A program made the translations under genes and the position numbers. The notes beneath the pieces were generated by a model. That model was not told the DNA's origin. It made no database searches and saw nothing but the letters and a program-made list of their open reading frames with translations. Shown here piece after piece: positions 10,974 through 59,590 of a stretch of 64,000 nucleotides of DNA (positions are counted from its first letter, which is position 1; every line of letters starts with the position of its first letter). Source of the stretch: Octopus vulgaris (taxonomy: Eukaryota); assembly GCA_951406725.2 (NCBI GenBank), contig OX597825.1:1674001-1738000 (forward strand), written 5' to 3'.

Positions 10974-11010
10974 TCTTAACGTTTCGGCAGTTTCTCCTTC
11001 ATCAGAAAAG
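10974..11010 (-). ncRNA. Minimal type I hammerhead ribozyme motif (canonical core)
   Basis: Minus strand reads CTTTT-CTGATGA-A-GGAG AAA CTGCC-GAAAC-GTT-AAGAC: CUGAUGA and GAAA core, stem II, palindromic AACGTT at stem III, and stem I UUUU/AAGA. Confidence 0.6.
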
Positions 11011-11358
11011 AATAAACAGAAGAAAGATGAGGGAGAGAAAGAAAGTGGGAAAAAGTGAGCGCGGAAATGAAAACTAAAAAATCTACCAAATAACAACAAC
11101 AGTAAGGGTGGAAGTTTAGTAATTAAAAATCAGAAGAAATAAAAAAGGGAGAAGCAGGTACGTGGATAAATGTATAAATGTGTACCTCTGTCTGAAAATG
11201 AACATAAGTGAGTTTGATATCTGTTTGTGTTTAATTGTTGGTAGGGTAGTGTGCAAGTGTGTGGTGATAGAAATATGGGCGTCGGAGATAGAAACATGGG
11301 ACGGCGAGCAACACGAAACGTGTTATTTATGTGTGCAAGAATTTATATATGTATATAT

Positions 11359-11575
11359 AATAAAAATTTACAGAAAAGCAAAAAACGAAGGCAGGTGTAT
11401 AAACAACAAGCAGGTGTAATTAGTTTGACGCTCAGGAAAGTGAGAAAGCTTTTTACGCTTCGAGCCTACGCTCTTCAACAGAAAGGAACACGAGGAAATA
11501 TATAGAGAGAAGATTAAAAAATCAAAAAAACAGAGAGGGAATAACAGCAGTTTTGGAGTTAGCGGTCAATCATAT
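11359..11575 (-). mobile_element. Short non-coding HHR-bearing element (Penelope-terminus or retrozyme-like), same family as 59432-59590
   Basis: Homologous to 59432-59590 (ATTAGTTTRACGCTCRGGAA...CCTACGCTCTTC). Bounded by TA/TG tracts. Confidence 0.55.
11449..11485 (-). ncRNA. Hammerhead-like motif with variant core (CUGUUGA; GAAG)
   Basis: Minus strand: CTTT-CTGTTGA-A-GAGC GTAG GCTC-GAAGC-GTA-AAAAG. Perfect 4-bp stem II, two core deviations. Confidence 0.45.
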
Positions 11576-11589
11576 ATGTATGTGTATAT

Positions 11590-12005
11590 GTAGTGGGTAG
11601 CGATTTTCTTCACTATTTCAAGGAGTGACGACCCTGCCTGACACGAGTCCCGGGCTCAGCTCCTTCTGGCTGACAGTACCTGGTATGGGCCCCTATCCAG
11701 GGTTACGAAAAGGAGACAACCTTCAAAGAAACTCGGAGTGGAGCCCCGTAGGCGGTTTAGTGTTCGACTCAACACTTCCGGCAGCTCCTGCAACAAAGCT
11801 GGTGCCCAACGTAATGCTCTGCTCTCCTTTGGACTACATCAGCAAGGTCGAGAGAGGAATCCTGACGATTGGGCTACTCAGGAGTTTCTTACATCTAGCC
11901 CAGGCCTGCACAATACTGGAGAGGACATGAAATGCAAAAACCAGACTGGATTAGTTTATGCGCAATCCCATTGTCTCCCGGGACAAAAAGGATGCCAACA
12001 AGGAT
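11590..12005 (+). mobile_element. GC-rich insertion, probable RTE LINE 5' UTR-derived fragment
   Basis: Sharp GC-rich island between microsatellites. TCCGGCAGCTCCTGC...AAGCTGGTGCC-AACGTA resembles RTE 5' UTR sequence as I recall it. No credible ORF. Confidence 0.4.
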
Positions 12006-56214: not shown

Positions 56215-57150
56215 TGCTAGACCAAGGAAGTATTTGACGGAGGTGAAGAAGAAAGATCAGAGATGAAAGTTAAGTAGAGCAAAGACTAAGAGTGAATAAA
56301 AGCCGTCTGAGGAGAGAGTGAGATGAGGTAAGCCTAGTAGAGCAATAAAAGACCTCGTAGGTTGGGCAAAGTAAAAATACTAAGCAGAGAAAGTCAAGGT
56401 GTAGGAAATAATGACTACGAAAGGTTTGCACATGGAATAAATGAAGATGACAAATCACTTGGTCAAAGGAAAACCAGGTCGAGATAAACTGGCAGAGTTT
56501 ATCAGATCGAGGAAATACAAAGCTGAAGAAAGACTAAGCTAAGACAATCCAGAGCCGATGATGGACCAAGGAAAGACTAGCCAGAAAACAGACTAAATTG
56601 AGGTTAAGGAAAGACTAGAACGAGCGAAAACAAAATCAAAGAAAGGTTAAGTTAGCGAAAGACTTTCCAGAGTAAAGTCTGCGTGAAGGAAAGATTGCAG
56701 TGGGGAAAATCAAGAACCAGATAAGACGAGACTAAGAAAAAATGCAGACAGTTAAAAACTAGGCGGAGGACTAAATATGTCTAGGAAAACTAGAAGACAG
56801 AAAGGTAAGGCTGAAGAAACATTGGTTTACTACAATTCTAGACTGAGATCAGTCTTAGTCGAGAAAAAACTAAGCAGAGAAGCATTGGGCCGAGATTAGA
56901 CTATACTAATGAAAGTGTAAGACGATGAATGACAAAACAGGGAAAGATTTATACATTGGGAAAATGTAGACCGAGAAAAGTTAAGAAAAGTCTAAACCTA
57001 CAAAAGACTCGACAGACAAGAAATTAGAATGAGAAAAAAGATAGAACAGAAGACTTTCCTGAGGAAAAGCAAGAAGCGTAGAATCAACCGAGGAAACTCT
57101 AACTTGATGAAAGACAAGACCGAGGACAGAGTATACAGTAGGAAAATGTT
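56215..57150. repeat. Ancient degenerate 16-bp minisatellite (consensus about GAAAGACTAGACCGAG)
   Basis: Contiguous 16-mers from 56641: GAAAGGTTAAGTTAGC / GAAAGACTTTCCAGAG / TAAAGTCTGCGTGAAG / GAAAGATTGCAGTGGG / GAAAATCAAGAACCAG / ATAAGACGAGACTAAG / AAAAAATGCAGACAGT / TAAAAACTAGGCGGAG. Confidence 0.7.
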
Positions 57151-58174
57151 GCTACAAGTTTCTCCTTTATATTCGAAAGGATTTTTTTATAAAGGGGTTA
57201 ATAGCTCCATCAGTTGTAAAGTGATGACACAAATTCATCTTCATTTCACTTCGGTTTCTATTAAGAAATCGCAATTTATTTTCATTGCAGACTTCGGAAT
57301 GTCGATCATTTCTGATGTTACTGGTCTTTTATGAGATGTTATAATAATATTCCATGATTCTTCATAAAACGGCTCCATAAAGACTATCAAAATCTTGCTT
57401 AAATCAATAAAAAAGCTTTAATAAGAAACGCAGTAGAATGTTGATCTGCAATTTAAACGGTGATTTAATATAGACAAGTTATCGTTGGTTGGAATGAAGT
57501 GAAGCTTTCTAGAGGTATTCTGTCGCATATAATCTTACAGAATATATTTAGACAGAAGCATACCCCGATTAGATTGCGGAACCAAAAAGAGATTGAAAAT
57601 GGAATTGAACATGTACAAATATTTCCCATTTTCTATAACAAATATACACATCTGTTGTAAACTATTTCATATATATAACTATTTAGAGGCAGTCATCAGA
57701 TTTACTGTTTCCTATTCCAGGTAACCCTATAATTTATAATTATGCGCGATTTGATTAATTATATTTTGAAAAATTTCAATTTTCGTTACCCACGTCTCTG
57801 TGTAGTTTTTGTTTCACACCAACGCTTTCCTTTCAATTTTCTTAATTCAGTTACTGCTATGCCCATCGTCGTAGATATCCCTACCTAAATACAATTCAAG
57901 ATAATATGTGGCTAGTTATGACCAATCGTCATTTTACTGGAAATTTAATGAGGGAGACTTTGAAGACTCAACGGCCAGCTTATGTTGAGTTTATCTCTTG
58001 TTGATTCCTCGGCATTAGCTTAAGGAAATGAAGATATCTTATCGCTAATTTATACAACATGCACGATATATATACATACATGCATACATACATACGTACT
58101 TAAACACACACACATCAACATAGATGTACATATATATATATATATATATATATATATATATATATATATATATA

Positions 58175-58330
58175 CTTTATTTAAAGCAGCGGAAAATTCA
58201 ACAAAACCTGTTACTCTGAGTTTCACGTCCCCGTTCGTCGGGCAGTTTTTGCTAAATAAAGCATATTACTCTACCACTGGTATTTGAGTACTCTTTTTCC
58301 ACCTTGTTTCACATTTATGTGTTTATTCGG
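58175..58330 (-). mobile_element. Short HHR-bearing element inserted in (TA)n
   Basis: Unique about 155-nt insert with (TA)n on both sides; contains the HHR motif below. Confidence 0.55.
58202..58251 (-). ncRNA. Type I hammerhead motif with variant core (CCGACGA)
   Basis: Minus strand: CAAAAACTGC-CCGACGA-ACG GGGA CGT-GAAAC-TCAGA-GTA-ACAGGTTTTG. Extended stem I pairs 8 of 10, stem II has a GNRA loop, GUA cleavage triplet. Confidence 0.6.
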
Positions 58331-59431
58331 TATATATATATATGCATATATGTATGCAATTCTATACACACGCACACACACATACATATATGCACACACA
58401 CATACAAGCACACACACAAACACACACGCATTCAAATACACACACACACACACACACATATGTATGTATCCATATATTTGCATACATTCAAAAATGTATT
58501 GAAGTTAATGTGTTTCAGTTTAATCTCTTTTATTAAAGATATTTAATTATTTCATATTTATTTTGTCATTTATGATTAATTTAGAATAACATTCCAAAAT
58601 GCTCTCGGCCTAATCTTCTCAATGAAGTCACTCGCTCTTTCTCTGTCTGCCTGTCTGTCTGTCTGTCTGTCTCTCTTTCTCTCTCACTCTCTCTCTCTCT
58701 CTCTCTCTCTCTCTTACTCTCTAACTCTGTCGTTTCCTCTGTTTTCCTCCTCTTGTGTACGTGTATATGTTTGCGCTTAACATACATGTACATATGAATA
58801 CACATATATGCTCATATGCATACATAATCACATATCTCAGGAATATATATATATATATATATACACATACACATACATATATATATATATCCCTTTTCTT
58901 CCCTCCCTCTTTCAACGCTTTTCGCGTCCCCTTTCTCTTCTTCTCTCTCTCGTTGCCCACATGTGACCATCGTCCATCTTCCTTTTCGACACGTGACCAT
59001 CTTCCTTTTCCTGCACGGACGGTCAAAAGACTGGGCGTTTTTTTATCTCTCCTCTATCTTTTCTCTTTTCAAAGATAACATTACTCCCAGCGTTCAATAT
59101 TTTCCTATCGTTCTGGTCTAACGACCCTCCGTGTCTGTTTTCGTTCGGTTTCTTTGTATGTCTCCATTGTTCTGTTTCTGCTCCCAATTTTGACCCTTCA
59201 TAAACCCTAGATTTTATTTTAGAATTTATCGGAGCATCTGTCTTTGAAGACTCATATTGTCGTTGAATGCTCGAAATGAAGAGTATATAGACAGCCGACA
59301 ACTGATGACGAGTCACCTCTTTGTGCTTACTTTCCTGTTTTCCATTTTCTCTCTTGTTTACCTATTTCATGTTGTTGCACAGTTGGTGACGTCATGGATC
59401 CATATATGCACACACACACATATATATATAT

Positions 59432-59590
59432 ATAGGGAGAATTCACAAAAGAAAACAAAATGGTGGTGTAGACAACTAACAAATGTATTAGTTTAACGCT
59501 CGGGAAGTGAAAGAGTCTTTAACGTTTCGAACCTACGCTCTTCCACAGAAAGGAGCACAAAAAGAAACAAGGAGAGAAAATAAAGAGTGT
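59432..59590 (-). mobile_element. Short HHR-bearing element, same family as 11359-11575
   Basis: Homology to 11359-11575; flanked by (TA)n and (TG)n. Confidence 0.6.
59517..59552 (-). ncRNA. Minimal hammerhead motif with variant core (CUGUGGA)
   Basis: Minus strand: CTTT-CTGTGGA-A-GAGC GTAG GTTC-GAAAC-GTT-AAAG. Stem I CTTT/AAAG is perfect; palindromic AACGTT. Confidence 0.55.

Follow-up and report, generated by a model that had tools for sequence, protein, structure and literature searches.

Penelope-like elements (PLEs) carry minimal type I hammerhead ribozymes, and Cervera 2014 (PMC4209133) described single hammerheads of truncated PLEs, among them close pairs on opposite strands. For the Naiad clade, no canonical hammerhead but only 'core' or 'half core' marks were reported (Craig et al. 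2021, PMC8557442). Hammerheads with permuted strand order of types SGC and CSG are active in vitro, the latter being known from two metagenomic sequences (Eckert 2023, PMC10085705), and animal retrozymes of the non-LTR (non-long terminal repeat) kind were proposed to derive from PLE ends (PMC7229834, bioRxiv 10.64898/2026.07.22.740005). The present study concerns a window of 64,000 nucleotides (nt) from Octopus vulgaris (GCA_951406725.2, contig OX597825.1, positions 1,674,001 to 1,738,000), in which an initial annotation had pointed out five type I hammerhead-shaped motifs and weaker sites near 35670 and 59240. Our results indicate that the five motifs are probably hammerheads at the 3' ends of PLE copies inserted in TA repeats, and that 59232-59308 is probably a rearranged hammerhead with an upstream stem II partner and a predicted cleavage after 59256.

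The site near 59240, initially annotated as a weak type I hammerhead, was rejected as such since its core reads UUGAAGA and no usable stem III is present. Instead, all hammerhead core bases occurred in its family in a rearranged order: the stem II 5' strand, a linking helix, a purine-rich loop and the stem III 5' strand followed by UH and the stem I 5' strand; then a 3-5-nt linker, the stem II 3' strand with GAAA and the stem III 3' strand, a loop, the linking helix again, and the stem I 3' strand with CUGAnGA. In the window, the following features were recorded:

59232..59308, plus strand: rearranged hammerhead of family F, an old, partly mutated copy (from aligned copies and a descriptor)
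59232-59236, plus strand: stem II 5' strand
59238-59243 with 59289-59294, plus strand: linking helix
59251-59255 with 59276-59280, plus strand: stem III
After A59256, plus strand: predicted cleavage
59257-59262 with 59296-59301, plus strand: stem I
59268-59272, plus strand: stem II 3' strand
59273-59276 and 59302-59308, plus strand: GAAA block and CUGAUGA block
58890..59405, plus strand: 5'-truncated copy of the non-coding F/G unit, start approximate (unit of ~0.7-0.83 kb, with head-to-tail partial dimers elsewhere)

Relatives of the window motifs were sought in the 2.8-Gb genome, and family sizes are first-look candidate counts from such sequence searches; family F amounted to 3,741. A pattern for the 3' half of the motif gave 2,128 exact matches (reversed control, 0), to which the same motif with other stem I sequences added 548 (control, 34). 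A structure-only descriptor displayed a single match in the window, at 59232-59308, and none in 100 shuffles. Outside octopus, the F/G pattern gave no matches in viral contigs, 14 matches in metagenomes and 5 in prokaryote genomes; these matches were attributed to chance since stems I and III were both paired in 0/19.

Among the gathered loci, 127 distinct F/G candidates were found, 79 of them with the full motif, and six subfamilies were sorted by downstream sequence alone. Majority strands were GAGCA/UGCUC or GAAGG/CCUUC for stem II, CUCAU/AUGAG, CGCAU/AUGCG, CGCGU/ACGCG or CGUGU/ACACG for stem III, and UUGUCG/CGACAA, UUGUCC/GGACAA or UCGCCU/AGGCGG for stem I. The last of these was predicted from its 3' strand before the 5' strand was read, and was then found in a new subfamily. 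Over 22 pairs in 40 F/G copies, 92.6% of the cells were paired (82.7% when shuffled, 39-55% when slid) and 120 cells displayed two-sided change, compared with 47 when shuffled; stems I, II and III each contained three pairs with such changes. The linking helix was paired at 93% and the linker between stems I and II measured 3-5 nt. All four helices of the rearranged motif covaried across the six subfamilies. Energy folding, which is unable to show crossing helices, gave mixed nested folds. Because stem II finds its partner strand 5' of all other parts of the motif, the chain is interrupted between A9 and G10.1.

In three groups of this genome and in distant phyla, the stems varied, yet no core base was lost and a cleavable triplet (AUA, AUC, GUC or GUA) was always present. 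This conservation argues against a real but non-catalytic fold, derived from a hammerhead and kept as a protein-binding or reverse-transcription landmark, which we regard as unlikely in spite of several precedents: in vitro cleavage by minimal hammerheads of PLEs is poor (PMC4209133), the hammerhead of the anole PLE depended on protein and was not required for insertion in vitro (PMC11167929), and family B, a type I family of the window (see below), thrives with U at core position 6, A6 being recorded in 0/20 and 0/29 copies, near-intact autonomous elements included. U6 is either a slow variant or the sign of a dead ribozyme within a successful family.

Less probable still is a conventional type SGC hammerhead, whose true stem II strand would be the G-run after A9 and whose upstream strand would be an off-switch. 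In F/G, A9 is followed by A-G-G-G, where one additional base precedes G10.1 as is usual in PLEs; this run can form three to four pairs with wobbles, and the upstream strand can alternatively pair with a downstream pyrimidine tract. Yet, only the upstream strand tracked the stem II strand in all six subfamilies: across the 79 copies, the Watson-Crick fraction between the stem II 3' strand and the upstream strand was 0.85 (0.63 with shuffled partners), compared with 0.43 (0.39 when shuffled) for the strand after A9. Likewise, the alternative pairing of the upstream strand with downstream sequence was no better than with shuffled partners.

Family J, which is unrelated to F/G and absent from the window (loci L377-L401 and L010), was found by the structure-only descriptor; it gave 6,388 exact matches (control, 0). 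Nothing after A9 paired with stem II in any of its copies (25/25), and of the 16 copies that extended far enough, 14 formed five Watson-Crick pairs between stem II and the upstream strand; Acropora-type Naiads, judged by eye, likewise displayed no downstream stem II partner. The other helices of family J covaried, with eight pairs displaying two-sided change compared with 3.6 when shuffled. Lacking a downstream partner and pairing with the upstream strand, family J points to a conserved form without backbone link between A9 and G10.1.

The rearranged form shares with types SGC and CSG (Eckert et al. 2023, PMC10085705) the block order S-G-C, all core bases, crossing helices, and stems I and II connected by a 3-5-nt linker on one side and by a helix on the other. 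Unlike in type SGC, block C is split in octopus, one stem II strand stands at the 5' end and the linking helix continues into stem III. SGC, CSG and the octopus form are three openings of one strand ring. Eckert's SGC and CSG examples came from metatranscriptomes and metagenomes and none from genomes of known organisms, whereas the octopus form belongs to an animal retroelement. No description of the A9/G10.1-split order was found in the open-access literature.

Full-length F/G copies are non-coding units of 695-825 nt in five loci, with the unit head recurring behind the 3' end in head-to-tail arrangement. In family J, a non-coding tandem dimer with a 713-nt unit was found, whose longest stop-free frame spans 93 amino acids (aa); tandem pairs lay 700-855 nt apart in several subfamilies, with the rearranged ribozyme as in F/G. 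Contigs of four sequencing runs, presumed to be RNA, covered the F unit, strand, ends and circles not being readable from contigs. F/G and J resemble animal non-LTR retrozymes (Cervera and De la Pena 2020, PMC7229834; Li et al. 2026, bioRxiv 10.64898/2026.07.22.740005) as non-coding head-to-tail units with a hammerhead. Those are characterised by type I hammerheads and mostly ~300 nt long, whereas F/G and J measure ~0.7-0.85 kb and carry the rearranged ribozyme. In behaviour F/G and J match retrozymes; in hammerhead type they do not.

The F/G head (L112, L146, L291) and J (L378, L010) both contain a motif resembling a splice donor, with a long stretch rich in pyrimidines behind it; this recalls the retained PLE intron, and the F/G tail stops exactly at the motif. 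Downstream of the J dimer in L010 lies an inverted fragment of a G-related variant with a Naiad-like stem I strand and a different internal loop. A tandem array of ~1.37 kb (L065-L067, G000:C2:102.04 Mb) has a unit joining pieces of families C and F.

The F/G ribozyme architecture matched that of Naiad PLEs and not the clade of the decayed PLE at 45.5 kb of the window, the initial annotation having ascribed the mobilisation of all motifs to a Penelope of that kind. Naiads of this genome are nearly identical to the published Octopus consensi (Naiad_Obim, Naiad_Ovul). Their type of rearranged motif gave 237 exact genome matches and lay 770-1,370 nt behind the end of the Naiad open reading frame (ORF) in 15/30 loci. 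Among those of the 54 published consensi (PMC8557442) that were inspected, 8 fitted fully by eye, from about five lineages in four phyla with their own unrelated stem sequences: three near-identical Acropora entries, Naiad-2_Movir, the entry after the Naiad_Plae header, a crustacean entry, Naiad_Obim and Naiad_Ovul. By the same inspection, two fitted partly (the ctenophore Naiad_Bfor and a squid entry), five nematode Naiads fitted type CSG, one 3'-end passage with a core did not fit and several arthropod passages could not be parsed. The octopus families resemble Naiads by TA targeting and by the rearranged architecture found at the 3' end of several Naiad consensi, the two Octopus ones included; unlike Naiads, F/G and J are non-coding, and they have no other sequence in common with them. 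F/G and J are likely non-autonomous riders that took their ribozyme from Naiad elements.

On balance, it is more likely than not that Naiad PLEs across animal phyla possess an active hammerhead whose topology, with an A9/G10.1 opening and kink-turn or reciprocal dimers (type CSG in nematode Naiads), falls outside the six known permutations, and that in octopus this ribozyme gave rise to non-coding retrozyme families of thousands of copies. If true, this would account for the apparent lack of a ribozyme in the PLE clade that is most abundant in many invertebrates, and would, within the open-access literature, be the first record of non-circularly permuted hammerheads from animal genomes. The hammerhead core would moreover tolerate a chain break at A9/G10.1, which would provide a new engineering format. 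Since standard descriptors are blind to the rearranged form, many copies are probably unannotated.

In the proposed working of the rearranged ribozyme, a hairpin arm made of the linking helix and stem III would hold the cleavage site and GAAA in its loop, into which two tails would dock: the stem II strand on the 5' side, and the stem I strand with CUGAnGA on the 3' side. Docking could take place within one molecule or between two copies, dimers being the working form of other PLE hammerheads. With linking helix and stem III forming one arm, a monomer would need a sharp bend. The kink-turn consensus consists of a 3-nt bulge and tandem GA; it was found between the helices in 16/18 J copies and 17/18 Naiad copies. 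F/G copies display instead a conserved GAA/AGUA loop, which we take to be S-turn-like. In one published Naiad the bulge is a single base, in favour of a dimer, and our analysis leans slightly towards docking in this way. Cleavage would trim tandem transcripts to unit length.

Several observations weigh against the rearranged ribozyme and its Naiad origin. The initial annotation had called for stem covariation, which was apparent in the paired cells of F/G but not in the number of pairs with two-sided change (10, not above shuffles; 169/500). F/G copies are related, and independent events amount to about one per subfamily split. When G-U pairs were allowed, the G-run after A9 paired with the stem II strand at 0.87, compared with 0.79 when shuffled (maximum, 0.82), through three to four mostly wobble pairs. 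Eckert 2023 (PMC10085705) assumed an uninterrupted block C, and no report of a working hammerhead with an A9/G10.1 break was found in the open-access literature. Published Naiad consensi were read by eye, not scanned, in supplement passages with three core spellings. F/G, J and Naiad ends, compared through one representative each, displayed no sequence match outside the motif and TA repeats. Naiad ORFs of this genome were all decayed (166 candidates from one 65-aa query; longest open frame, 263 aa). Mean pairwise identity was 0.82-0.84 for Naiad copies and five F/G subfamilies, and 0.90-0.91 for the younger J and G2, one J dimer being 99.8% identical; Naiad ages match the older F/G subfamilies, in favour of the reading given above, but not G2 and J. 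With Naiad ORFs decayed and J and G2 younger than the sampled Naiads, a Naiad protein is not yet nameable as the mobiliser. F/G or J ends were not encountered downstream of coding loci in 29 Hydra, 30 Neptune-like and 30 Naiad loci.

The other features of the window are related to type I hammerheads and PLEs:

59430..59585, minus strand: family B copy, 3' end of a Neptune-like PLE; minimal type I hammerhead at 59517-59552, core CUGUGGA
11371..11517, minus strand: older family B copy; hammerhead at 11449-11485, core CUGUUGA, A15.1 mutated
30450..30550, plus strand: family C copy, 3' end of a Hydra-clade PLE; type I hammerhead at 30460-30520, core intact, predicted cleavage after 30515
30323..30453, minus strand: inverted arm of the family C insertion, with the optional tail
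58175..58330, minus strand: family D insertion, a short 5'-truncated copy with hammerhead at 58202-58251, joined to an inverted tail
35557..35875, plus strand: family E insertion, inverted arm at 35557-35671 and forward arm from ~35672, with only the GAAA half of a type I hammerhead
10974..11010, minus strand: family A, old minimal type I hammerhead, core intact, stem II decayed
45499..46900, plus strand: decayed Hydra-like PLE with reverse transcriptase (RT) and GIY-YIG domains, many stops and frameshifts

The five named motifs were all present where initially annotated, on the minus strand for four of them and on the plus strand for 30460 only, and every one fell in a dispersed repeat family. 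A type I descriptor written in the terms of that annotation recovered 3/5 (10978, 11454 and 59521), compared with a mean of 0.03 in 30 block shuffles. The two missed motifs, 30460 (bulged base in stem II) and 58202 (core CCCGACGA), were both confirmed through family copies. Of the 197 matches in an Rfam scan of the window, the best 150 included no hammerhead family, only microsatellite-driven microRNA matches. First-look candidates numbered 2,539 for family B, 666 for C, 575 for D and 386 for E. Type I order and a short palindromic stem III were observed in families A-E (for E in fuller copies only, 14/24). These families resemble PLE minimal hammerheads (PMC4209133) by these two characters, by the extra base after A9 and by occurring mostly as single truncated copies and close opposite-strand pairs. 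Nothing essential differs: U6 characterises family B, position 4 is C and the first stem II pair A-U in family D, and the stem II domain of family E measures ~75 nt. The five named motifs are already known biology (Cervera 2014).

Motifs 11449 and 59517 belong to one family (B) and are 74% alike. The family B end lay 530-1,200 nt downstream of a GIY-YIG domain on the same strand in 20/30 GIY-YIG loci, and in L335 the hammerhead stands 170 nt behind an open frame of 826 aa with RT, Cys linker and GIY-YIG. The family C end was found directly behind a Hydra-type RT in L176, whose identity to the window copy is 93%. An intact frame of 717 aa, with RWK, DKT, CxCx5C, CxxC and CxH motifs and a C-terminal endonuclease, occurs in a sister family; a Pfam search with this ORF gave no matches. 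B is thus the 3' end of a Neptune-like autonomous PLE and C that of a Hydra-clade PLE, and intact proteins of both kinds are present in the genome. An intact core was recorded for C (CUGAnGA in 29/29 copies) and A, but not for B, with its family-wide U6, nor for most of D, with its C4. A young Hydra-clade family with many intact 717-aa frames (L181:487-2637) gave 12,542 first-look candidates.

The element at 45.5-46.9 kb is an RT and GIY-YIG PLE, as initially proposed; its assignment to the Hydra clade follows from similarity alone (35% identity over 219 aa to the intact Hydra-clade ORF).

In aligned copies the 3' end was constant and passed into TA repeats, and the 5' end differed from copy to copy; a tail could be present or absent, and an inverted copy often stood upstream. 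A TA tract was present within 40 nt of the 3' end in 27/30 copies of D, 25/29 of C, 18/26 of B and 15/22 of F/G. Counting located ends only (3/29 were not located in B and 8/30 in F/G), this corresponds to 68-90%, compared with a background of 7-14%, and the postulated Penelope-like system inserted in TA repeats was borne out; the AT-rich stretch at F/G ends is partly the element's own sequence. Inverted copies accompanied 18/27 C, 15/25 D and 6/30 F/G insertions. Fixed 3' end, TA, truncation, inversions and tail are hallmarks of PLEs (Craig 2021, PMC8557442), and the optional tail was ascribed to two internal start sites of reverse transcription (Frangieh 2024, PMC11167929). The named motifs stand at the 3' ends of repeat families in TA tracts, with PLE-typical 5' truncation, inversions and optional tails. 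A PLE protein would nick TA-rich DNA, and reverse transcription would start inside a more-than-unit RNA, as shown for another PLE (PMC11167929); such an internal start would make 3' ends constant, tails optional and 5' truncation heavy.

The initial view of several non-autonomous minimal type I families, all moved by a Penelope like that at 45.5 kb, agrees with TA targeting and short inserts, with the lack of a coding parent for A, D and E in the genome searches made here and with the resemblance of the D hammerhead to published Hydra-clade ones (PMC8557442 supplement), but it is very improbable, as autonomous PLEs from two clades end in B and C, F is Naiad-like in architecture and not type I, and 5' truncation varies among the copies of D and E (in D, one extends ~160 nt further upstream), as it would in truncated longer elements. 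The comparison with full-length Penelope termini that it had called for placed B and C at autonomous PLE ends and gave no parent for A, D and E; being truncated autonomous PLEs, B and C are wrongly termed non-autonomous retrozymes.

Family A had only three distant relatives in the genome search. In family D, the core was mostly CCGAYGA (17/30 copies). This family (L245-L274) gave 1,675 exact 20-mer matches and displayed GNRA-like loops, nearly every copy being truncated at most ~30 nt from the ribozyme. Near 35670, the suspected type I hammerhead was confirmed for family E, not for the window copy, which is without its CUGAUGA half. Both halves occurred in 14/24 copies of this family (L121-L144), with a stem II domain of 69-85 nt and a tail of ~150 nt. 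The window itself is rich in microsatellites, which dominated a general repeat search, and an 830-nt GAAG/GAAT tandem array at 43248-44079 was the source of spurious long frames.

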